Positions 4,974 through 49,814 are shown, numbered from the whole stretch's first letter. The stretch: DNA of 63,881 nt, filler included, from an uncultured Ignavibacteriales bacterium (GCA_964611355.1; 3 parts of 3 records of this genome joined end to end with filler, not necessarily neighbours in it), one strand, 5' to 3'. A program made the numbers and translations. Notes: a model not told the origin generated them from the sequence alone.

Positions 4974-5276
4974 AGAAATCCTCCTTCTCTTTTTTGACAA
5001 CTATGCAGGTTTATAAACGGCAAGTCAATTTTAAATGGCATGTAAAACGCAGTTGGTATTGATTGGAAAATCGCCAAGACCGGAAAACGCAGGATTTTGG
5101 AAAAGAAGTCGCCATCATTGGTCTATTTAACCGAGATAACAATTTAATCGTTTTCCAGTAGTACCGACTTGACAAACGTTTGTTTTTGGTTTTCTTATCG
5201 TCTTAATTTGCGCCGCTCCTGTGGAGAAAAGTTGGATGGACTATTATAAATCATCGCGCGGCGGGAAAGGGTAGAT

Positions 5277-5633
5277 ATGCCGGTTGACTATAATGCCGTC
5301 CTGGTTTTCATCCTTCTCGGCATTGGCCTGGTTCTTTTTACTTTTTTCTTTGCGCGCCTTATTCGACCCCACCACCCTTATCAAGTAAAAAACGAAACCT
5401 ATGAATGCGGCATCCCGATCCTCGGGAAAAGCTGGGTGCAGTTCAACAACCGTTTCTATATCTTTGCGCTCATTTTTGTAATTTTCGACGTGGAAGCCAT
5501 TTTTCTGTTTCCCTGGGCGGTGGCGTACAATTCACTGGGCTTTTTTGCCCTGATTGAAATGGTAATCTTTATTGCCATCCTCCTGGTCGGACTGGTCTAT
5601 GCCTGGAAGAAGGGAGCCCTGAAATGGGTGTGA
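5277..5633 (+). CDS. nuoA: Complex I subunit A
   Basis: [19 protein letters not shown]; 3 TM segments. Confidence 0.95.
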
Positions 5634-6130
5634 TCAAAAAACTCCCGGTGTTTGCCAGGAATATTCCCGGCGGCGGCCTTGTTACGACATCTCTAAACAA
5701 TGTGTTGACGACGTGTCAGGCTAAGTCCCTCTGGTATTTGCTTTTCGGTACCGCATGCTGCGCCATTGAGCTGATGGCTACGGGGGCATCGCGCTACGAT
5801 TTCGACCGCCTGGGGATGATGTTTCGCGCCTCGCCGCGGCAGTCGGACTTGATGATCGTGGCCGGCACCATTACGCTGAAAATGGCCCCGGTGGTTAAAA
5901 GGCTTTACGATCAGATGGCCGAACCGAGGTACGTGCTCGCAATGGGCGGATGTACCATCGGCGGCGGACCGTTCTATTACGACAGCTATGCGGTTTTGAA
6001 AGGCATTGATAAAATCATTCCGGTCGATGTTTATGTTCCCGGCTGTCCCCCCCGGCCGGAGGCGCTTCTTAATGGCTGCCTGGAAGTCGGCAAAAAGATC
6101 AGGCAACAGAAACTGGAAGACTGGAGCTAA
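5624..6130 (+). CDS. nuoB: Complex I subunit B
   Basis: [27 protein letters not shown]. Confidence 0.96.
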
Positions 6131-6139
6131 AGCCGCCCA

Positions 6140-6610
6140 ATGACCAAGGAACAGCTGACCAGGCATATAAAGGAAAATTTTTCCGCAGAGCTTGACGTAA
6201 TCGAAAACGAGCAGCCGGAGCCATATTTTATCATCAAAGCGGATAATCTGGTTAAATTCTGCCGGTTTATCCATGATGATCCCGGCCTGGTAATGGATTT
6301 TTTGATGAACCTGTCGGGCGTCGATACCGGCGAACGGTTCGAGGTCGTTTACAACGTTTGTTCCTACCGCCTGAAGCATCGGATTTATTTCAAGATCCTG
6401 CTTGATCGCCAAAACGCGGAATTCGACACGGTGCGGTCGGTATGGCCCGCGGCCGACTGGTATGAACGCGAGGTGTGGGAACTTTTTGGAATGAACGTGC
6501 GTGGCCATCCCAACCTGACCCGATTTCTTTTGCCGGACGATTGGGATGAAGGTCACCCGCTTAGAAAAGACTGGGTGGGCAAAGATGTTATTCCTTTCCC
6601 GGAGAGGTAG
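6140..6610 (+). CDS. nuoC: Complex I subunit C
   Basis: WYEREVWELFG, GHPLRKD. Confidence 0.95.
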   Translation: MTKEQLTRHIKENFSAELDVIENEQPEPYFIIKADNLVKFCRFIHDDPGLVMDFLMNLSGVDTGERFEVVYNVCSYRLKHRIYFKILLDRQNAEFDTVRSVWPAADWYEREVWELFGMNVRGHPNLTRFLLPDDWDEGHPLRKDWVGKDVIPFPER

Positions 6611-6616
6611 CAAGTA

Positions 6617-7723
6617 ATGGCCGAGCAGCTTCGCACCGAGGAAATGATGGTCAACATGGGGCCGCAACACCCTTCGACGCACGGGGTTTGCCGCCTGATA
6701 TTGACCATCGACGGCGAGGTAATTAACGACTGCGTTCCTGTTATCGGCTATCTTCATCGCGCCATCGAAAAGATTTGCGAGAACCGTACCTATGCCCAGT
6801 GTATTCCCCTTATGGATCGCTTCGAATATGTCACCGCCATGTCTTGCAATTGGGTTTTTGCCCTGGCTGCCGAAAAGCTGTCCGATATTGAAATCCCCGA
6901 ACGGGCTGAGTATTTGCGCGTCATCATGGCCGAGCTCAACCGGATGGCCAGCCACCTGCTTTGTATCGGCGTGACATCCATGGACATTGGCGCGCTGACG
7001 CCTTTCCTGTACACCTTCCGCGAACGCGAGATGATTCTTGATCTGTTTGAAATGACCTGCGGCCAGAGATTGACTTATAACTATATCCGCGTCGGGGGCG
7101 TATCCAGAGATATTCCGCCGGAGTTTGTTCCGATGTGCCGCCAATTCCTTGATATCATAGACGCCAAGGTTGACGACTATGAAAGGGTTCTGACCGAAAA
7201 CCCGATCTGGATCGCCCGCAATAAGGGAATCGGTATTATACCGGAACAGATGGTTTACGACTATGCCATCTCCGGGCCGTCGGCCCGCGCCTCCGGCGTT
7301 AATTTCGATATCCGCAAGCACGACACCTATTCGATCTATGACCGCTTTGATTTCGAAGTTCCCGTTTTTTACGGCTGTGACAGCTATGATCGTTATCGGG
7401 CGAGGATAGCGGAAGTCCGCCAGTCGGCCCGCATCGTCCGCCAGGCGTTGGACGGGTTACCGGACGGCCCGGTTCGAGCGAAAGTGAGCATGAATTTCAA
7501 AACCAAACCGGGCGAGGTTTACACCCGCATTGAAAATTCCCGGGGAGAAATGGGTATCAATTTAATTTCTGACGGTTCCAGGAAACCGTTCCGGGTGCGC
7601 GCCCGGGGAGGAAGTTATAATCACCTTATGGCGTTACCCGATATCGTCCGGGGAACCAAGATCGCCGATTTGGTAGCGATTTTCGCTTCGCTTGATATTA
7701 TTATGCCGGAGATAGACAGGTAA
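6617..7723 (+). CDS. nuoD: Complex I subunit D
   Basis: NMGPQHPSTHG, GYLHR, C-terminal EIDR; no NiFe CxxC motifs. Confidence 0.96.
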   Translation: MAEQLRTEEMMVNMGPQHPSTHGVCRLILTIDGEVINDCVPVIGYLHRAIEKICENRTYAQCIPLMDRFEYVTAMSCNWVFALAAEKLSDIEIPERAEYLRVIMAELNRMASHLLCIGVTSMDIGALTPFLYTFREREMILDLFEMTCGQRLTYNYIRVGGVSRDIPPEFVPMCRQFLDIIDAKVDDYERVLTENPIWIARNKGIGIIPEQMVYDYAISGPSARASGVNFDIRKHDTYSIYDRFDFEVPVFYGCDSYDRYRARIAEVRQSARIVRQALDGLPDGPVRAKVSMNFKTKPGEVYTRIENSRGEMGINLISDGSRKPFRVRARGGSYNHLMALPDIVRGTKIADLVAIFASLDIIMPEIDR

Positions 7724-12124: not shown

Positions 12125-13606
12125 ATGAATTACAGTTTTCCGATATTATCCTGTGTTGTTTTTGCGCCGCTGGCGGGGATGATTGTGGTTCTTTTGCTTG
12201 ATCGGGAAAAACACAACGCCATCAGGTGGGTTTCGACCTTTTTTGCCTTTATCACTTTGATCCTGACCATAATCGTCCTTAAAGATTATAATTGTGCGAC
12301 GGCTGAGATGCAGTTTGTCGAGATGCATCGGTGGATCCCCGCGATCAGCGCTCAATACTTCCTCGGCGTTGACGGCATCTCGGTGCCGATGCTGGCGCTG
12401 ACCAGTCTTCTTTCGCTGATTGCCATCGTCATAAGTTTTAACATCACCAAGCGGGTCAAAGAATATTTTGCCTTTTTCCTCCTGCTGGAATGCGGTATGC
12501 TTGGCGTTTTTGCCGCGCTGGATTTCTTCCTTTTCTATGTCTTCTGGGAAGTCATGCTGGTGCCGATGTATTTTTTGATCGGTGTCTGGGGCGGGCCGCG
12601 CCGCGAATACGCCGCCATCAAGTTTTTTCTCTATACACTGTTCGGTTCCATTTTTATGCTGGTGGCGATTCTGATTCTTTATTTCTCCTCCGAACCGCAC
12701 ACGCTCAACATGCTGGAGATGATGCGGCTTGGCCCGACCTTCTCGCACGGTATCCAGCTTCTCACCTTTGCCTTTTTCTTTATTGCTTTCGCCATCAAGG
12801 TCCCCGTCTGGCCGTTCCATACCTGGCTGCCTGACGCTCACGTCGAAGCACCCACCGCGATTTCAATCGTCCTGGCGGGCGTCCTGCTGAAGATGGGAAC
12901 TTACGGCATGCTCCGGGTTTCCTGGCCGATGCTGCCGGAAGGTATCCGGTACTTCGCATTTCCGATAGCGATACTCGGAGTAATCGCCATTATATACGGC
13001 GCGCTGGTCTGCATGGCTCAGAAAGACCTCAAAAAACTGGTCGCTTATTCTTCGGTGTCGCATATGGGTTATTGTATGCTGGCCCTGGCGGCCTTCACTT
13101 CGGTAAAAGCTCTGGCGGGATGTATGTTCCAGATGGTGTCGCACGGTTTGCTCACCGGGGCGATGTTTCTTTTGGTCGGGGTTTTATATGATCGGGCGCA
13201 CACCCGCGAAATCGCCGCCTTTGGCGGGCTGTCCAACAAGATGCGCGTCTATACCGGCCTGATGATGCTCTTTACCATGGGTTCGCTCGGCCTGCCGGGA
13301 ATGTCGGGATTTATATCCGAGTTTCTCGTCTTTATCGGTTCTTTTTCCTCCTATCCGGTTATGGTCTGTATCGCCGTTCTGGGCGTGGTGCTGACGGCGG
13401 CTTATTTCCTGCGTATGATCCAGCATATCTTTTTGGGCGAATTCGACAGTGCCAAATGGGGCGGCCTTACCGACATTAACATTCGGGAAACCCTGGCGGT
13501 GGCTCCCCTGGGGATTCTGACTTTGTTTATTGGAATCTATCCCAAGCCGCTGTCCGATCTGATACGGGCGACACTGGAAAACATTGTAACCCTGATGGCT
13601 CGTTAA
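12125..13606 (+). CDS. nuoM: Complex I subunit M
   Basis: FYVFWE, PFHTWLPDAHVEAP, AYSSVSHMG. Confidence 0.96.
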   Translation: MNYSFPILSCVVFAPLAGMIVVLLLDREKHNAIRWVSTFFAFITLILTIIVLKDYNCATAEMQFVEMHRWIPAISAQYFLGVDGISVPMLALTSLLSLIAIVISFNITKRVKEYFAFFLLLECGMLGVFAALDFFLFYVFWEVMLVPMYFLIGVWGGPRREYAAIKFFLYTLFGSIFMLVAILILYFSSEPHTLNMLEMMRLGPTFSHGIQLLTFAFFFIAFAIKVPVWPFHTWLPDAHVEAPTAISIVLAGVLLKMGTYGMLRVSWPMLPEGIRYFAFPIAILGVIAIIYGALVCMAQKDLKKLVAYSSVSHMGYCMLALAAFTSVKALAGCMFQMVSHGLLTGAMFLLVGVLYDRAHTREIAAFGGLSNKMRVYTGLMMLFTMGSLGLPGMSGFISEFLVFIGSFSSYPVMVCIAVLGVVLTAAYFLRMIQHIFLGEFDSAKWGGLTDINIRETLAVAPLGILTLFIGIYPKPLSDLIRATLENIVTLMAR

Positions 13607-13607
13607 A

Positions 13608-15062
13608 ATGATTGACCTGAGGCCTCTTATACCTGAGTTGTTTCTCTTTTGCGTTTCACTGGTTGTTCTGGGGGTCGATCTTTTCTCAAAAAGGCGGTCG
13701 GTGTCGCTGCCGGCATACCTCAGTATGGCTGGCCTGGTGGTTACCGGGTTTCTCCTGTATAAATTTCAGGGCGGCCGGCTCTGGGAAGGAATGTTTGTCT
13801 CCGATTCCTTCGCTTATTTCTTCAAGATAATCATTCTGGGTGCCGCCTTTTGCGCCATCGGCTCGTCATTCGGTACGGTCGGACGGATGACTCACCACCG
13901 GGGAGAGTACTTTTCGCTGATTCTTTTTTCCACGGTGGGGATGATGTTTCTGGTGTCGGCCAGGGAGCTAATCACGCTTTATATCGGGCTGGAGCTGACC
14001 ACTATCCCGCTTTTCGTTCTTGCCGCCTATATAAAATCAAGCCGGGCTTCCAGCGAAGCGGGCTTAAAATATATGATTATCGGGGCCGCTTCGTCGGCAA
14101 TTTTGCTTTACGGGTTCTCTATCATCTATGGCCTGACCGGTACCACCTATATACCTGAGGTTACCATCAACCTGTCGATTTACTGGTTGTCGTTTGGCGA
14201 AATCGGTCCGGCCTTTTCCGTGGCCCTGATGATGATTATCGCCGGGTTGACCTTCAAACTGGCTATTGTCCCGTTCCATATGTGGGCGCCGGACGTATAT
14301 GAGGGCGCTCCGACTCCTATCACCGCCTTTCTGTCGGTCGGTTCCAAGGCCGCCGCCCTGGCCGCTTTTGCCCGAATTTTCTGCGGCATGTTTGTCGCCT
14401 TTGCCGACGATGTGATGCAGCCGCGTGACTGGGGCAATATGGTCGCCTTCCTGGCGGCGGTATCCATGATCCTCGGCAACGTTGTCGCGATCCGTCAGAC
14501 CAACATCAAGCGGATGCTGGCTTATTCGTCAATCGCACAGGCCGGATATATAATGGTTGGCGTTGTGGCCACGTCAACGCTGGGCATCGCCTCGATCAGT
14601 TATTACGCCTTCGCCTACCTGCTGGCCAACATGGGCGCTTTTGCCGTGGTTACTGTTTTCGCCGATCGGAGCGGCTCGGAAAAGATTGCCGATTACGCCG
14701 GCCTGGCCCGTTCATCCCCGGTACTGGCATTTCTGCTGGCGATATTCCTGTTGTCGCTGGCCGGGATTCCGCCTTTGGCCGGGTTTTTGGCCAAGTATTA
14801 CGTGTTTGCGGCGGCTATTGAGGCCGGTTATACCTGGCTGGTTATCCTGGCCCTGTTGACGGCGGTGATTTCGCTTTATTATTATGCCAACGTTATCCGG
14901 CTGATGTATATGGTGCATGAGCCCAATCCGCATCATATAGTTCCGGGTTTTCCGGCCGGGCTGGTGCTGGCCCTGACCGGCGTCGGGGTGGTATTGGTCG
15001 GTATCCTGCCGCAGTCAATTCTGGAGCTGGCGCTTCGAGCGGCATCGAGTTTTGCTTTTTAG
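13608..15062 (+). CDS. nuoN: Complex I subunit N
   Basis: PFHMWAPDVYEGAP, KRMLAYSSI, AGIPPLAGF. Confidence 0.95.
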   Translation: MIDLRPLIPELFLFCVSLVVLGVDLFSKRRSVSLPAYLSMAGLVVTGFLLYKFQGGRLWEGMFVSDSFAYFFKIIILGAAFCAIGSSFGTVGRMTHHRGEYFSLILFSTVGMMFLVSARELITLYIGLELTTIPLFVLAAYIKSSRASSEAGLKYMIIGAASSAILLYGFSIIYGLTGTTYIPEVTINLSIYWLSFGEIGPAFSVALMMIIAGLTFKLAIVPFHMWAPDVYEGAPTPITAFLSVGSKAAALAAFARIFCGMFVAFADDVMQPRDWGNMVAFLAAVSMILGNVVAIRQTNIKRMLAYSSIAQAGYIMVGVVATSTLGIASISYYAFAYLLANMGAFAVVTVFADRSGSEKIADYAGLARSSPVLAFLLAIFLLSLAGIPPLAGFLAKYYVFAAAIEAGYTWLVILALLTAVISLYYYANVIRLMYMVHEPNPHHIVPGFPAGLVLALTGVGVVLVGILPQSILELALRAASSFAF

Positions 15063-23425: not shown

Positions 23426-23525
23426 NNNNNNNNNNNNNNNNNNNNNNNNNNNNNNNNNNNNNNNNNNNNTTAATTAATTAANNNNNNNNNNNNNNNNNNN
23501 NNNNNNNNNNNNNNNNNNNNNNNNN
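23426..23525. other. Artificial contig-joining spacer
   Basis: 44 N + TTAATTAATTAA + 44 N. Confidence 0.97.
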
Positions 23526-33342: not shown

Positions 33343-35093
33343 CTATTCTTCTTCAAGGGTCTTGGCCAGGGTGCGGGTCCAACCGTACTCATTGATTTGG
33401 AAATAAATGCCATCATCCGTGATTTGAGCCACGTAGCCGTTTTTGACCTTGTCACCCGGTTTCAGAATATATCCAATACCGTCAATATCTTCCAAAAGAG
33501 CCGCGCTTTTCCCCGCCGCTGACTTAAGAACGCCAACCAGAGACAAGGTCTCGACATTTGGTATCTTGTCGATGCTGATACTTCCTTTGCCCGATGCGCC
33601 CTTACCAAAAAGAGTTTTGAACGGATCCCGGGAAACGCCGTTATACTTGATTACAATGCGCTGCGGGAACCGGACGACCTGAGTCTGTTTCATCCGCTGC
33701 GACTTGGCGGCGCTGCGGCGATAGCGTGAGGTTTTTTTATCGGCCGGCAGTCGATCAGTTTTAGCCGCCTTCTGATCAACCTGTGCCAGCGTCGCTATCG
33801 GCCCCTTACCCGAGTCGCTGCCTTTCAGGCGCGCTTTGTCTTTATCGCTTCCATCCGGAGCAGCATCCGGTTTGGGACCGATCTCCACCGAAACCGACTT
33901 CTCTTCATTCGATGATTTACTTGATGCCTTCTTATGGACATCCCTGATTTCGACGCCTAGAATCCTGCCGGGAATTGGGGGTTTGTTGTGATCTTCATCG
34001 ACAACGGCCAATTCCTTCGCCTTTTGATCCGACTGATCGGCAACACCCTTATTGGAATTCGAAGATTTCTTCTTTACGGCAGCTACCCCGGTTTGCGCAG
34101 GCCGGTTTTCCTGAGGCTTGAAGTCTTTGGGCAGAATGGGGCCATAAACCTGATCGCTCGGTTGCGGGGCGGAAGCAACGACAGGCGACGGTTTTTCCAT
34201 CTTTTNNNNNNNNNNNNNNNNNNNNNNNNNNNNNNNNNNNNNNNNNNNNNNNNNNNNNNNNNNNNNNNNNNNNNNNNNNNNNNNNNNNNNNNNNNNNNNN
34301 NNNNNTTCTGCCTTAATTTAGGCTGAGGCTTCGCCTTTTCGGGTAAACGAGGCCCATATGACTCGCTGTTTCCAGAAACAGGTATTTTAACAAACTCGGT
34401 CGATGCCGGGGCGGCGCTCGTTTCAGATGTCTTCTTCTTTGTTTCCTGTCCTTTTATAATAGATGGCTTCTTTACAATCGTTTTATTCTCGGCAGGCGGG
34501 GTTTTGTATTTGTACTGAATAGGTATCGGTTTTCCGCCGATAGAGGCCGCTACCGATTGATTATCAGGCTCCTGCGGTATCTGACCGGCGGCTTTTACAT
34601 TGACTTCCAAACCGGTTGTCTTTGTCAGGCTCTGCGGCTTTTCATCAGGGCGCTCGCTTGTCCATTGCATCAATGACAACGTTTCGGGATCAGAAATTAA
34701 GACCCTGACGACATTTCCTTCGGTTTCAACCCGATAGACCGACTCTTTGGTCAGGTCAAGTACCACGCGAACGACTTCCTCCGGCTTGACGGAGTATTGT
34801 GAGGTCCGAACAGAGCTAATAATCGACTTCGGCAGATTGGTGAATTCCTTTTGAGACAGTTTGTGTTGGGCGGCCAGACAATCGACGACAATCCGGAAAG
34901 GTTTACCTTCCACGGCTTCTACCGACTGATGGGCGACACGGGCCGGCCCGTCGCCATAAATGGATAAAACCGTATGGGTTCCCTCGTGCGTCAGGCCCAG
35001 CCGGGAAATATGACTGGCCCCCGCCAAAGACGCCGCGGCCGCAAAAAGGATCAATATCGCCAGCAGTGGAGATGTCTTGTATCTATATAACAT
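33343..35093 (-). CDS. AMIN-domain / PilP-like protein interrupted by a sequencing gap
   Basis: 5' part: signal peptide and AMIN domain (PFRIVVD, VR.SQY...VVRVVLDL). 3' part: PilP-like RDPF, L.LVGV, G.GYI.K.GD. Pro/Lys/Ser-rich linker on both sides of the gap; sits between pilO and pilQ. Confidence 0.65.
34206..34305. other. Scaffold gap (100 N, no linker)
   Basis: N run inside the low-complexity linker; true length unknown. Confidence 0.97.
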
Positions 35094-46438: not shown

Positions 46439-46538
46439 NNNNNNNNNNNNNNNNNNNNNNNNNNNNNNNNNNNNNNNNNNNNTTAATTAATTAANNNNNN
46501 NNNNNNNNNNNNNNNNNNNNNNNNNNNNNNNNNNNNNN
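46439..46538. other. Artificial contig-joining spacer
   Basis: 44 N + TTAATTAATTAA + 44 N. Confidence 0.97.
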
Positions 46539-46759
46539 GCAAATTGCCGGCCTTTTCAATCCGCCGGGCGGGAGAAATGGCAAACGCCCCCTCAAACGTC
46601 AATCCCCAGCCCGGCGGAATTCGGTAACACACGCTCGTGAAGGGAGCTGTTTTTCTGCGGCCCCCCGTTCGGGGAAACGTGGGGTCGCAGAAAGCCAAAC
46701 TCTCGTTTGGCGCTCGCATCATATACAGGAGGTTGGGCAGCCTGTATGCCCTATCGTGA

Positions 46760-46775
46760 AACAACATCCGTGCCG
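46760..46775 (-). promoter_or_regulatory. Putative sigma54 promoter downstream of the TPR-bEBP gene
   Basis: CGGCACGGATGTTGTT versus consensus TGGCACG-N4-TTGCW (GT instead of GC at -12). Confidence 0.45.
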
Positions 46776-46872
46776 ATCGCATACGAGGATGAATAAAACT
46801 TATTAACTTAATGTGTGATAAGCAGATATACTGTGTGTGCCGAGGGGACGAGATAGCATTAATTAAGTATGT

Positions 46873-46987
46873 CCGTAATGGTTTTTACGCAGCAGGTTAC
46901 GCAGCGTTACGCACGGCGTTGTAACTGATTATATGATCTTGGGTTATGGCTGCGTAAAATTACGCGGGGAATGCGTAACGTTACGCA
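46873..46987. promoter_or_regulatory. Cluster of TTACGC/GCGTAA sites (candidate enhancer/UAS)
   Basis: Seven exact half-sites, including the perfect palindrome TGCGTAACGTTACGCA (46972-46987) and GCGTAAAATTACGC (46952-46965). Confidence 0.6.
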
Positions 46988-49127
46988 CGCGAGAGGGACT
47001 TGAGTTTATATTTATGCGGTGGCGAATGGCGCCTTCGCTCAATCCCAGGCGGCGGGCGACCTCGCGGCGATTCCAGTCGGTCTGGTTGAGCAAATCAAGG
47101 AGCTGTCTCTGCTCGGACGTGGCGTTGCGTGACGCGGCCTCCGCCATGCGGCCGATATTGCCTTTCGACAGCAGGGCCAGCCGCCGCACCTCGGCCTTGA
47201 ACTGGCGGATATTGCCCGGCCAGTCGCCTGCCGACAGAACCTTAATCAGGCGGTCGAAAGCGCCGGTGCAATCATTGCGGGCAGTATTCAGATCGGATAT
47301 GTTCAGGAAATATACAAGCAGGGCCGCAACATCATCGAGGCGGTCGCCAAGCGGCGGCAGCGTAATCGGAATCTCGCACAGGCGGTGATAAAGGTCGGCG
47401 CGAAACTTTGATTCATGAATACGCTTTTCAAGATCATGATTGGTGGCAGCGATCAGCCGGAAAGCGACTCGCCGTTCTTTTGTCTCACCCAGTCTGCGGA
47501 TTTTTCTTCGTTCCAGGACGTCAAGCAGCTTGGCCTGAAACTCCGGCGAAGCGTCAGCGACCTCGTTCAGATACAGCGTTCCGCCGTCAGCTTCTTCAAT
47601 AAGCCCGATTTTATCCCTGTCGGCGCCGGTGTATGCTCCTTTTCTATACCCGAACAGTTCGGCCTCGATCATGTTGTCAGGGATGGCGGCGGTGTTGACC
47701 AGGATAAATCCGCCAACGCGCCCGGAATGATAATGAATATAGCGTGCGAATAAATCCTTGCCGGTTCCGGTTGGCCCGGTGAGGAGTACCGACATTTCCG
47801 ATTCGGCTATATGCCCGGCCATATCGACGAGTTTTTTCATGGCCGGATTAGCGGTTATGATTTTCGGCTCTTCGCCGTGCGAATCAGCCGGACGGGAGGT
47901 TCCACGCCGCGTCATCTTCATTTCGGCGTCGATCTTTTTGAGAAACGGTAAAACGTCTTCGCTCTCAAAATATTCCCGCGCCAGGTATAAAAGAGCCTGC
48001 CGTTCGCCGTTCTGGTATAAACCTGATACGGCGGCAAGGTACCGGGTCGCCGCCAACTCGTATCGTGAGCCGATCATGGCGAAAATTTCAATCGCCTTTT
48101 TGAACCAATGACAAGATTTGTTATCGTTGCCGTTTATATTCTCAAGTTGAGCGTAAATGCGGTAGCAGGCCGCGATCTCGACCCGTTCGTTTATTTTTTC
48201 AGATACGGCCAGAGCTTCATCGGCGTACGTTTTTGCCCGGCCAAATTCGCCCTGTCCCAGGCAGGCGTCGCCAAGCCGCCTTTTTATTTGCGAAACCAAG
48301 GCCGATTCCGGAGCGATTTCAAGCGATAATTCCAAGCCTTTTATTAAGGCCTTTTCGGCGTTATTGTAGTCTTCTTTTAGCAGATGAATCCATCCGAGAT
48401 TTTCGTAGTAAATCGCCTGCTCGCGAGCGTACCCGTCAAGGTATAGTGTAGCCTTTTTGATTGTCTGAAGCGCGGTTTTGATGTCCCCTTTCAGGGCGTG
48501 GGAAATAGCCGACATAATAAGGAATATTGATGAGTCTTTGTCGCTTAAGCTTGCCATCTTGAATTCAATTTTTCTATATATAGCCAATGATTCGTTGAAA
48601 CTCCCCAGTGAATAGTATAATACCGCTAAGTTTATTGATACCATTAACTTGGCTTTTTCATCCCGGATATGGTCGTGTAGCCCGATACATTTTTGTAAAT
48701 ATGAGATTGCAGATTCAGCGTCGCCAATATGATGGGCTATAAAGCTGAGACGATTTAGTGCGCGTGCCTGTCCCGAGTAATTGTCGCATCTTTTATATCC
48801 GGTATATGATTCAAGAAGAACTTCTTTGGCTTCAAAAAGTTTTCCCAATGATACGAGCAACAAGCCATGTAAGAACTTGGCGCGGGCGAACTTATCATTT
48901 TCAAGGCTGTTTCTGTAATAATCAAGCGCGTAATTGAGGTTATCTTCTATGTGATAGTTGCCCAGATAAAGATTGGCTTCAGCCAGCAGAAGATTGGCAA
49001 ATGCCTTTTCTTCGGGAGAAATCGAGTTTGAATCGATTTCTCTCAATTTTACTATCGCGTCTTTGAACTTCTTATTTTGAAGAAGCTCCTCGGCGGCTTG
49101 TAGTCGATGTGAGGTAGTTGTTTTCAT
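46944..49127 (-). CDS. TPR-repeat sigma54-interacting transcriptional regulator (TPR-AAA+-HTH)
   Basis: About 400 aa of TPR-like helices; GPTGTGKD Walker A, ELFG..KGAYTGA, RLIAATN, FRADLYHRL, WPGNIRQ, Fis-type HTH. Confidence 0.92.
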   Translation of the reverse strand: MKTTTSHRLQAAEELLQNKKFKDAIVKLREIDSNSISPEEKAFANLLLAEANLYLGNYHIEDNLNYALDYYRNSLENDKFARAKFLHGLLLVSLGKLFEAKEVLLESYTGYKRCDNYSGQARALNRLSFIAHHIGDAESAISYLQKCIGLHDHIRDEKAKLMVSINLAVLYYSLGSFNESLAIYRKIEFKMASLSDKDSSIFLIMSAISHALKGDIKTALQTIKKATLYLDGYAREQAIYYENLGWIHLLKEDYNNAEKALIKGLELSLEIAPESALVSQIKRRLGDACLGQGEFGRAKTYADEALAVSEKINERVEIAACYRIYAQLENINGNDNKSCHWFKKAIEIFAMIGSRYELAATRYLAAVSGLYQNGERQALLYLAREYFESEDVLPFLKKIDAEMKMTRRGTSRPADSHGEEPKIITANPAMKKLVDMAGHIAESEMSVLLTGPTGTGKDLFARYIHYHSGRVGGFILVNTAAIPDNMIEAELFGYRKGAYTGADRDKIGLIEEADGGTLYLNEVADASPEFQAKLLDVLERRKIRRLGETKERRVAFRLIAATNHDLEKRIHESKFRADLYHRLCEIPITLPPLGDRLDDVAALLVYFLNISDLNTARNDCTGAFDRLIKVLSAGDWPGNIRQFKAEVRRLALLSKGNIGRMAEAASRNATSEQRQLLDLLNQTDWNRREVARRLGLSEGAIRHRININSSPSRVRNVTHSPRNFTQP

Positions 49128-49407
49128 TATCTGATACTTCTTTGTTTTCCTGAGGATTTACTATTATTGAAATAACGTATTCCCAGGCAAATCCGGCGAT
49201 TGGACTGATGCTTGATACGCTAAATAGCGCGAAATTCTTGCTGTTTCCATTATCGGGAATGGATGAATTGTATGTATCTACCCATCCGCTTTCATCGCCT
49301 TCGTAGATATCGTCCCTGTAACGGCCGGGATTGTCTGCGGATACCGGTAAGGCGAATAAGAAGCAACAGAATGCCGCCAGCAGTATCCCTGTTATTAACC
49401 GTTTCAT
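49072..49407 (-). CDS. Small secreted protein / candidate signalling pro-peptide (111 aa)
   Basis: GGAGGAG RBS; Sec signal peptide MKRLITGILLAAFCCFLFALPVSA; 3' end overlaps the start of the TPR-bEBP gene by 56 nt. Confidence 0.75.
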   Translation of the reverse strand: MKRLITGILLAAFCCFLFALPVSADNPGRYRDDIYEGDESGWVDTYNSSIPDNGNSKNFALFSVSSISPIAGFAWEYVISIIVNPQENKEVSDNENNYLTSTTSRRGASSK

Positions 49408-49475
49408 AATATTAACTCCTCCGATCCGACTAAATACCGAAGCCGGATCGTCAAACATTTTTATCGACTCTATTC

Positions 49476-49506
49476 AAAAGCGCCGCCCGAAATCAAACAG
49501 GCGGCG
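49476..49506 (-). terminator. Hairpin plus short U-tract in the leader of the small secreted protein gene
   Basis: CGCCGCC...GGCGGCG stem followed by CTTTT on the minus strand. Confidence 0.45.
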
Positions 49507-49618
49507 GTTTATATTTTCGCTCTAATATCCGGATAGAGATATATAAAAATTTTGTGTGATAACGTAACTGTTGCGCAAGAAAAATATTCATTATTTGCCC
49601 CTGCTACCGTACCCTATA

Positions 49619-49647
49619 AGTCTAATGATTAATGCCATATCTGTCAA
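49619..49647 (-). promoter_or_regulatory. Putative sigma70 promoter of the microprotein/TPR-bEBP operon
   Basis: TTGACA, 17-nt spacer, TAGACT on the minus strand. Confidence 0.55.
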
Positions 49648-49704
49648 ATGAAAAAACGGGATTATCGCGCTATTTCCCTTAATGAAGGATATTCGCCCGC
49701 ATGG

Positions 49705-49733
49705 TTGACCTTTGATGGGTATATGGTTATATT
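49705..49733 (+). promoter_or_regulatory. Putative sigma70 promoter of rsgA
   Basis: TTGACC, 17-nt spacer, TATATT. Confidence 0.5.
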
Positions 49734-49814
49734 TCGTTTTCATTTTGGCCGATAGTTGAAATATACAAAAATCTTTTGTCTGACAGGGAGGAACATGCTA
49801 AAAAGCCGGAGAGT

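Follow-up and report, generated by a model that had tools for sequence, protein, structure and literature searches.

A small signal-peptide protein encoded upstream of a TPR-sigma54 activator forms a conserved gene pair with it and may be its exported signal

Receptors in the cytoplasm that are built of tetratricopeptide repeats (TPRs) and read re-imported peptides are so far known only from Firmicutes and the mobile elements of these bacteria. In these RRNPP systems (Rap-Phr, NprR-NprX, PlcR-PapR, and AimR-AimP), a small gene for a Sec-type propeptide adjoins the gene for the TPR receptor. A similar arrangement is described here from a 63,881-nt stretch of DNA (hereafter the window, always meaning its full length) of the genome GCA_964611355.1, listed as an uncultured Ignavibacteriales bacterium. 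A 111-aa open reading frame (ORF) with a signal peptide lies on the minus strand and overlaps by 56 nt (49072-49127) the start of a 727-aa protein on the same strand, a TPR-containing bacterial enhancer-binding protein (bEBP) with an AAA+ domain and a weakly predicted helix-turn-helix (HTH). This layout had been proposed in an initial annotation of the window, and ORF and Pfam analysis found the same. In the part of the published description that was available, the RRNPP signature has five points, a receptor of 250-500 aa, TPRs in it, a propeptide of 10-100 aa, a Sec signal on the propeptide, and direct neighbourhood of the two genes, and the detector based on it is illustrated on Firmicutes and viruses (PMC10075063). 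The gene pair shares three of these points (Sec signal, TPRs, and adjacency) and departs in the two lengths; the receptor has 727 aa, with a TPR part of about 410 aa, and the small ORF has 111 aa. Since the detector, as described there, is limited to receptors of 250-500 aa, it would not list this family.

Is the small gene a regular companion of such activators? The genome (2.57 Mb, 96% complete) encodes 18 bEBPs, and only three of them, on contigs C49, C56, and C11, have a TPR N-terminus. Each of the three has its own upstream signal-peptide ORF with an acidic tryptophan motif, which reads GDESGWVD in the window (C49) and, just after the predicted cleavage site, GDEHPWGGE in C56 and AEHPWAEDP in C11. 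An upstream signal-peptide-like ORF on the same strand was found at 31 of 34 related loci, and the other three have just 0-165 nt of upstream DNA. The initial annotation would have taken homologous regulators without any conserved upstream secreted ORF as a refutation; such an ORF was found at all 31 testable loci, and the tryptophan motif is present in 28 of them. The heuristic for signal-peptide ORFs is permissive, as it fires at 352 of the 734 frames of at least 400 aa in this genome. When it was combined with the acidic tryptophan motif and a length of at most 150 aa, only the three TPR-bEBPs remained of the 734 frames.

Thirty small proteins served to train a family hidden Markov model (HMM), with which 20 loci of 14-18 kb were searched. 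Among 4546 ORF pieces there were 23 matches, all of them upstream of a bEBP gene and on its strand, and mostly overlapping its start by about 25-155 nt. A match adjacent to the bEBP gene was found in 18 of the 20 loci and in 9 of the 11 loci outside the training set. One of the two misses is the C11 paralogue (L123), whose ORF is too divergent. Over the 48053 ORF pieces of the organism's own genome, the HMM matches only the small ORF of the window. At E<=1e-20, the phylum contains matches to the TPR domain in 183 of its 285 genomes, with up to six in one genome. The closest named homologues of the bEBP come from Zixibacteria or FCB-group metagenome-assembled genomes, which is taken here as the likely lineage. 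When genome contigs were scanned with the whole bEBP, 4 of 73 loci were full-length relatives and the others matched through the AAA+ domain of other bEBPs; a scan of metagenome contigs gave a similar picture, with two additional contigs from the same organism (L127 and L128). In summary, the small ORF and the TPR-bEBP gene are a conserved cassette.

The small protein is matched by no Pfam or NCBIfam model. A word-index search with it alone gave a single match (P0121, 95% identical), and the best score of an ESM Atlas search was 0.76, below a useful level. The family is visible only by profile search, which among 1.84 billion representatives gave 269 clusters with E values up to 1e-3 and 44 with values up to 1e-10. 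With few exceptions they are 85-130 aa in length, with a median of 112 aa among 149 family representatives and a few members of 68-90 aa. The signal peptide was called from sequence features and family conservation instead of a dedicated predictor. It has K/R at residues 2-3, a best 19-residue Kyte-Doolittle value of 2.54, and a VSA|D site, as expected for a Sec signal. The family consensus MKRLIxLLxxxxFxxxLFxPPxxA is conserved in this region, the hydropathy of which has a median of 2.35, and a DPxxP element often follows.

The initial annotation had guessed at a GD(E)xxW motif, and an element of this kind is indeed the sole strongly conserved one in the mature part, P-(S/E/N)-G-D-(D/E)-(G/S/T)-(G/P)-W-x-(D/E)-(P/V). 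Of the 150 listed family representatives, 149 have a version of it, and 95 have the version G[DE][DEGAS]x(1-2)W. W42 of the window's protein is invariant in an alignment whose rows were chosen with a tryptophan filter, and nearly invariant in an alignment whose rows were not chosen by the motif. The remaining mature part is hypervariable, with a mean column identity of 13%. In the AlphaFold2 (AF2) model of the small protein, made from 108 sequences, residues 2-19 form a helix (pLDDT 88-90), residues 20-68 are without secondary structure, and residues 69-83 form a 15-residue helix with a mean pLDDT of 67 (about 65-72). Thus, the mature part is predicted to be mostly unstructured. The polar C-terminal tail is encoded where the small ORF shares its DNA with the codons for the bEBP's conserved N-terminal helix, and its conservation may therefore stem from the bEBP reading frame.

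Several departures from the usual form were found. Four members (L001, L075, L076, and L078) are short forms that end 3-4 residues after the motif and are without the second hydrophobic stretch and the tail. Two or three tandem small genes lie upstream of one bEBP gene in L087, L097/L105, and L102. The upstream ORF of L103 is truncated to 42 aa. L109 has two extra small genes 2.4-2.9 kb upstream of its TPR-bEBP gene (5257-6168), and each of them carries a DPNKPKPW...GDDxGWG module twice in one protein, resembling a multi-copy precursor. For L094/L095, the only close pair of equal length, overall pN/pS is 0.62, and the mature part has eight nonsynonymous changes and one synonymous change, too few to interpret.

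Judging from its domains and its sigma54-contact loop, the 727-aa protein is a genuine bEBP with an unusual Walker B motif. Pfam finds Sigma54_activat (PF00158, 5e-60) and AAA_lid_14, and TPR_12 (4e-19) together with six further TPR families at about residues 120-345. The same scan found no receiver, GAF, or PAS domain, in agreement with the initial annotation, and the protein lies below every NCBIfam equivalog cut-off. The Walker A motif GPTGTGK is intact. The loop reads GAYTGA, a form of the GAFTGA signature; G497 and T500 do not vary among 70 family members, of which 47 have F and 23 have Y at position 499. The Walker B motif is LNE at 47562-47570 (residues 520-522), with Asn in 63 of the 70 members and Asp in 7, and reads LDE in all 14 other pattern-matched bEBPs of the genome, including the two TPR paralogues. 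The LNE form may mean slow or altered ATP hydrolysis. The sigma factor is represented in the genome by an rpoN DNA-binding domain (199 bits), alongside the candidate promoter with -24 and -12 elements described below.

The AF2 model of the TPR domain was compared with known structures. Foldseek placed the LGN/Pins TPRs first by E-value, and its best global superpositions were MalT domain III (TMq 0.67) and apo NprR (0.61). After re-ranking with VIA-align, the pheromone-bound Rap of phage phi3T came first, with Z 29.1 and a root-mean-square deviation (rmsd) of 5.0 over 339 residues. It was followed by chains of APC/C subunits (28.1), RapF-PhrF (27.8), MalT (27.5), NprR (27.5), APPBP2 (27.0), and AimR (about 22). 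A co-fold of the TPR domain (residues 1-405, 70-row alignment) with the mature small protein (residues 25-111) scored 0.01 and speaks neither for nor against binding.

The activator gene is followed by what may be its own target site. An array of TGCGTAA/TTACGCA repeats (Table 1), which includes the perfect palindrome TGCGTAACGTTACGCA at 46972-46987, is a candidate enhancer (upstream activating sequence) for the HTH of the bEBP. The core CGTAA/TTACG occurs eight times in 320 nt here, against 0.47 expected. Over 21 loci, the 6720 nt near the bEBP stop codon hold 51 copies of it and the 366,872 nt elsewhere hold 462, a 6-fold enrichment whose nominal p-value is over-optimistic because the motif was chosen after inspecting some of the tested loci. 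The repeats are missing at about half of the loci, and L120 has TCGTAC instead. The sigma54-type promoter candidate in the window aligns column for column with TCGGCACAGATGTTGCC (L120), CCGGCACGGAGGTTGCC (L121), TTGGCACACGACTTGTA (L118), and TTGGTACAGAAGTTGCT (L104). A sigma54-like site on the same strand 100-400 nt after the stop codon was found at 7 of 20 loci, against 1.0 expected, with this distance window chosen post hoc. Visual inspection of L120, L121, and the window had suggested a leader element, TTCGAGCG...CCGGG, which was dropped, as an alignment of five sequences gave no clear block beyond the promoter.

What would such a promoter transcribe? The putative leader is cut by the end of the contig in the window and continues on L128, a metagenome contig that is 99% identical over bEBP residues 459-727. 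There, a leader of about 375 nt is followed by a gene for a 273-aa Rce1-like/CPBP membrane protease (L128:1370-2191; PF02517, 46.3 bits). The protease is homologous to the product of a gene three positions after another TPR-bEBP gene in L106 (28% identity, E 4e-17). The initial annotation had stated that no kinase lies nearby; the next gene on L128 agrees with this, whereas the window alone cannot tell, as the bEBP stop codon lies 405 nt from the end of contig C49, so that the absence of a kinase on that side cannot be judged from it.

At other loci, the first downstream genes encode lipoproteins (L105 and L121); the lipoprotein-type ORF of L121 begins about 690 nt past the stop codon of the bEBP gene. 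In L120, a short ORF with a Cys-rich tail (...FHFGDMCGLFCANCIIGFNAY) follows the sigma54-like site at about 6565-6772 on the minus strand, and genes for a radical SAM/SPASM enzyme and an ABC ATPase lie further downstream. These genes look like a cluster for a ribosomally synthesized and post-translationally modified peptide (RiPP) under the control of the cassette. Similar enzymes were found in L107 and L112. In L107, a weak TraB/PrgY/GumN match (13101-13838; 26.6 bits, cut-off 26.8) lies beside the radical SAM and ABC genes; PrgY limits pheromone self-induction in Enterococcus. A pair of proteins of about 360-400 aa and about 170 aa, both without a Pfam family, recurs in L114 and L118 (both at positions +2/+3) and in L121 (+4/+6), and is duplicated in L114. 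For the C56 paralogue of the organism's own genome (L122:7831-7950), a strong hairpin with a T-run lies about 60-100 nt past a sigma54-like site, AGGCATACCGCTTGCT, and ahead of a DUF6125 gene, and this element is a possible sigma54-dependent small RNA.

The reading that I favour, tentatively and at somewhat less than an even chance, is that the small protein is a cognate exported signal and the TPR-bEBP its cytoplasmic receptor with a sigma54 output. The small protein would be exported via Sec and cut outside the cytoplasm, and a fragment with the acidic tryptophan motif (here around GDESGWVD) would return into the cell. There it would bind the groove of the TPR solenoid, which at roughly 410 residues would be the only input domain of the activator, and the AAA+ module would switch between an inactive and an active assembly. 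The enhancer repeats and the sigma54 promoter directly after the activator gene would drive a variable output gene, in this organism presumably that of the Rce1-like/CPBP membrane protease, and sigma54 transcription of this adjoining gene would track the level of the signal. A diffusible peptide would fit the tight and duplicated linkage, the lone short linear motif, the short forms that end at the motif, the tandem and internally repeated modules, and the mostly unstructured mature chain. Import may be feasible, as an OPT-family oligopeptide transporter is encoded in the genome (324.8 bits).

The anatomy, the gene linkage, the motif, the TPR fold, and the downstream repeats with a promoter-like site are observed; export, cleavage, processing, import, TPR binding, and the direction of control are inferred. 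A number of points weigh against an exported signal read by the TPR domain. The genome has no OppA-type binding protein above the cut-off (26.5 versus 32.4 bits) and no PTR2 transporter. If the organism is a diderm, as the phylum names of its relatives suggest, the peptide must cross the outer membrane twice. Known propeptides are shorter than the 111 aa of the small protein, and most members have the motif inside the chain, so that two cuts would be needed. The upstream signal-peptide ORFs of L003 and L004 keep PSGED and are without the tryptophan, and in L119, the other locus missed by the HMM, no such ORF was seen. APC/C subunits, MalT domain III, and APPBP2 score within about 1-2 Z units of Rap and NprR, which amounts to a tie, and a sequence profile ranks Rap (6t3h, E 5.4e-6) below the TPRs of kinesin light chain, LGN, and OGT. 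Downstream, the after-the-fact choices of repeat motif and distance window mentioned above count here too, and the -12 element in the window is TTGT instead of TTGC, with GT also in L118. Finally, there is no consistent sigma54 promoter before the small genes (TGG-N9-TGC in 2 of 30 loci, at inconsistent places) and thus no visible autoinduction loop.

A wider version is possible, and I hold it a little more loosely. The cassettes could be a pheromone system of RRNPP logic in a diderm, uncultured, Zixibacteria-like phylum of the FCB group with a TPR-gated sigma54 receptor, where each of several orthogonal cassettes per genome would induce its own adjoining output. The CPBP protease could process the precursor, closing a positive loop. 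The outputs would then comprise the CPBP protease, radical-SAM/RiPP-like clusters, lipoproteins, and possibly small RNAs.

Alternatively, the small protein may be merely a co-transcribed exported product, such as a surface, adhesion, or antagonism factor, while the TPR domain senses a metabolite or another protein; the linkage would then reflect co-expression and not signalling. I regard this as rather unlikely. A simple pheromone has no need of the hydrophobic, aromatic C-terminal half of the protein, the outputs vary widely among the loci, and TPRs bind many kinds of partners, with the sugar-responsive MalT domain III matching the model as well as Rap does (Z 27.5). However, mere co-expression does not fit well with linkage so tight that every HMM match lies upstream on the same strand, mostly with an overlap. 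The linkage has also survived repeated duplication into paralogous cassettes, the HMM finds no copy of the family away from a TPR-bEBP in the genome, and the lone conserved mature element is a short linear motif instead of a domain.

The small ORF might instead act in cis as a secretion-monitoring leader, on which ribosomes would pause at W-x-(D/E)-P unless the translocon pulls, the pause setting the translation of the activator. A signal peptide with one short W/D/P-rich motif in an otherwise hypervariable ORF would suit a leader of the SecM type, as would the constant position directly upstream of the regulated gene, mostly overlapping it. In 18 of 20 loci, 121-184 nt separate the tryptophan codon from the start of the bEBP gene, and the four short forms stop 3-4 codons past the motif, 11-72 nt before the stop-bounded bEBP frame. 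Nevertheless, this account is improbable, since tandem copies with their own Shine-Dalgarno sequence and internally repeated modules make no sense for a cis-acting leader, several paralogous cassettes with unrelated outputs occur per genome, and the regulated gene encodes a transcription factor and no component of secretion. Secretion monitors have the arrest motif at the C-terminal end of the leader, whereas 44-72 residues follow the tryptophan in 18 of 20 loci. With about 18-25 residues between signal peptide and motif, the signal peptide would, from the sequence, still be inside or just leaving the ribosomal tunnel at the pause. If anything slightly more doubtful is control of the activator from the envelope, where the small protein would remain, with no re-import, as a partner or anti-activator associated with the membrane and would contact the TPR domain through its C-terminal part. 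Most members do have the second hydrophobic stretch followed by a polar, basic-ended tail, the AF2 model places a helix at residues 69-83, and an intramembrane-type protease such as the Rce1-like output could act on such a segment. The membrane-tethered anti-activator that the initial annotation had offered as its alternative is nevertheless weakened. Over the best 19 residues of the stretch, the median hydropathy is 1.16, and no more than 21 of 149 members attain 1.6; these 19 residues include a median of two charged ones, so that in most members the stretch is not transmembrane-like. The predicted helix has just 15 residues, the four short forms lack both stretch and tail, and the conservation of the tail may, as noted, come from the overlapping frame.

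The coordinates of the locus are collected in Table 1. The window consists of three contigs joined by runs of N, C36 (1-23425), C37 (23526-46438), and C49 (46539-63881), with N runs at 23426-23525, 34206-34305 (a 100-N gap inside C37), and 46439-46538. Therefore, genes to the left of 46539 are no neighbours of the pair. The small ORF has an alternative 128-aa reading from an ATG at 49458. A GGAGG- or GAGGT-like Shine-Dalgarno sequence precedes it in the related loci inspected as well. The region upstream of the small ORF has seven sigma70-like matches against a shuffle mean of 4.9, and is thus not above the shuffles. About 110 nt downstream of the sigma70-like promoter candidate lies a terminator-like hairpin, which possibly marks a leader, an attenuator, or a short transcript. 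A scan of window positions 46539-49800 matched no Rfam family. Salt-marsh assemblies from four DNA runs contain the locus, with few differences in the small ORF, and are unusable for selection analysis. In one low-depth contig of these (run X4), the small ORF lacks 73 nt (49226-49300), not a multiple of three; the contig may stem from a variant or a relative, or the gap may be an artefact of assembly.

Table 1. Features of the cassette and its surroundings in window coordinates
Feature	Position	Strand	Basis or remark
Start of putative transcribed leader	46539..46759	-	Cut by contig end, continues on L128
Sigma54-type promoter candidate CGGCACGGATGTTGTT	46760..46775	-	-24 GGCAC intact; about 170 nt after bEBP stop
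TGCGTAA / TTACGCA repeat array	46873..46987	.	Spans bEBP 3' end and first 70 nt after stop
TPR-sigma54 activator (bEBP), 727 aa	46944..49127	-	Pfam
Candidate C-terminal Fis-type HTH, residues 672-705	47013..47114	-	HTH_8 20.9 bits, cut-off 22
Sigma54-interaction AAA+ domain, residues 423-588	47364..47861	-	Walker A GPTGTGK, GAYTGA, Walker B LNE
TPR input domain, residues 1-410, 21 helices	47898..49127	-	AF2 pLDDT 93.8, pTM 0.88
Small, putatively exported protein, 111 aa	49072..49407 (incl. stop)	-	ATG at 49407, stop ending 49072
Second hydrophobic, aromatic stretch, residues 59-83	49159..49233	-	Kyte-Doolittle 1.39, one Glu in window of the calculation
Conserved acidic tryptophan motif GDESGWVD, residues 37-44, W42	49276..49299	-	Family alignments
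Predicted signal peptide, residues 1-24, MKRLITGILLAAFCCFLFALPVSA then DNPG	49336..49407	-	Hydropathy, VSA site, family consensus
Shine-Dalgarno GGAGGA	49416..49421	-	9 nt before small-ORF ATG
GC-rich hairpin then T-run	49481..49506	-	9 pairs, 8 G-C; tail CTTTTGAATA; between sigma70-like promoter and small ORF
Sigma70-like promoter candidate TTGACA-17-TAGACT	49619..49647	-	10/12 positions; weak, upstream of small ORF

In the literature searched, in which subscription journals are largely not covered, no TPR-gated bEBP paired with a secreted small protein was found, nor such a pair in Zixibacteria. Should the peptide idea fail, the small-protein family, its strict linkage to one subfamily of bEBPs, and the placing of enhancer and promoter behind the activator's stop codon are still new as far as this literature shows, and the uncultured Zixibacteria gain a testable regulatory unit. 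If an exported signal is indeed read by the TPR domain, a diderm candidate phylum would also have peptide communication of RRNPP logic. The sigma54 activator would be gated in a new manner, by a TPR solenoid where a receiver, GAF, or PAS domain would otherwise stand, and signal gene, receptor, enhancer, and promoter would form a compact and portable cassette that could be rebuilt in E. coli.

How does the cassette compare with other regulators? Like PspF-PspA and HrpRS-HrpV, it has a bEBP without a receiver, GAF, or PAS domain and a nearby-encoded partner that may control it. The partners in those systems are cytoplasmic or peripheral to the inner membrane and act on the AAA+ domain, whereas here the candidate partner carries a signal peptide, and a large TPR domain would provide the input of the bEBP. 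In the Vibrio LuxO-sigma54-Qrr circuit, a cell-cell signal likewise leads to sigma54 transcription of an adjoining target gene via a bEBP, and NF041946 (LuxO) of NCBIfam is among the partial AAA+ matches of the present protein. However, LuxO is a response regulator that is phosphorylated through membrane kinases; it has no TPR domain and is not known to have an adjoining gene for a secreted peptide. MalT is alike in having a TPR-type solenoid sensor (domain III, PDB 1hz4; Z as given above, rmsd 4.3) fused to an oligomerising ATPase activator. As a STAND NTPase it works together with sigma70, its ligand is maltotriose, and it is not known to have a secreted partner protein. SecM, VemP, and MifM are also small signal-peptide ORFs upstream of a controlled gene, variable save for a short W/P motif; here, in contrast, the motif of most members lies about 45-70 codons ahead of the stop codon instead of at the end, the target is not a secretion gene, and copies occur in tandem or internally repeated.

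The RRNPP systems are the closest in logic. Beyond the adjoining genes, the likeness includes a conserved signal part with a mature part hypervariable around a short motif, and several paralogous pairs per genome. A putative regulated target lies beside the receptor gene, as the target aimX adjoins aimR-aimP. In structure, the TPR model has pheromone-bound Rap and NprR among its closest matches, tied with other long TPR solenoids. On the other hand, the receptor here has 727 aa and a sigma54 AAA+ output, where RRNPP receptors are an HTH repressor or activator alone or a phosphatase, and it belongs to a Zixibacteria-like lineage of the FCB group instead of Firmicutes or their phages. The putative propeptide has a length of about 110 aa and its motif inside the chain, its gene lies upstream of the receptor gene and overlaps it, no OppA-type protein exceeds the cut-off, and there is no specific sequence kinship. 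The interpretation offered in the initial annotation, an RRNPP-like system, is thus partly supported; two signature points differ, and the sequence kinship is no closer than to generic TPR proteins. Since these two points are missing and there is no specific sequence homology, the cassette is not filed as a member of RRNPP; among the systems compared, it nonetheless appears to work most like them.

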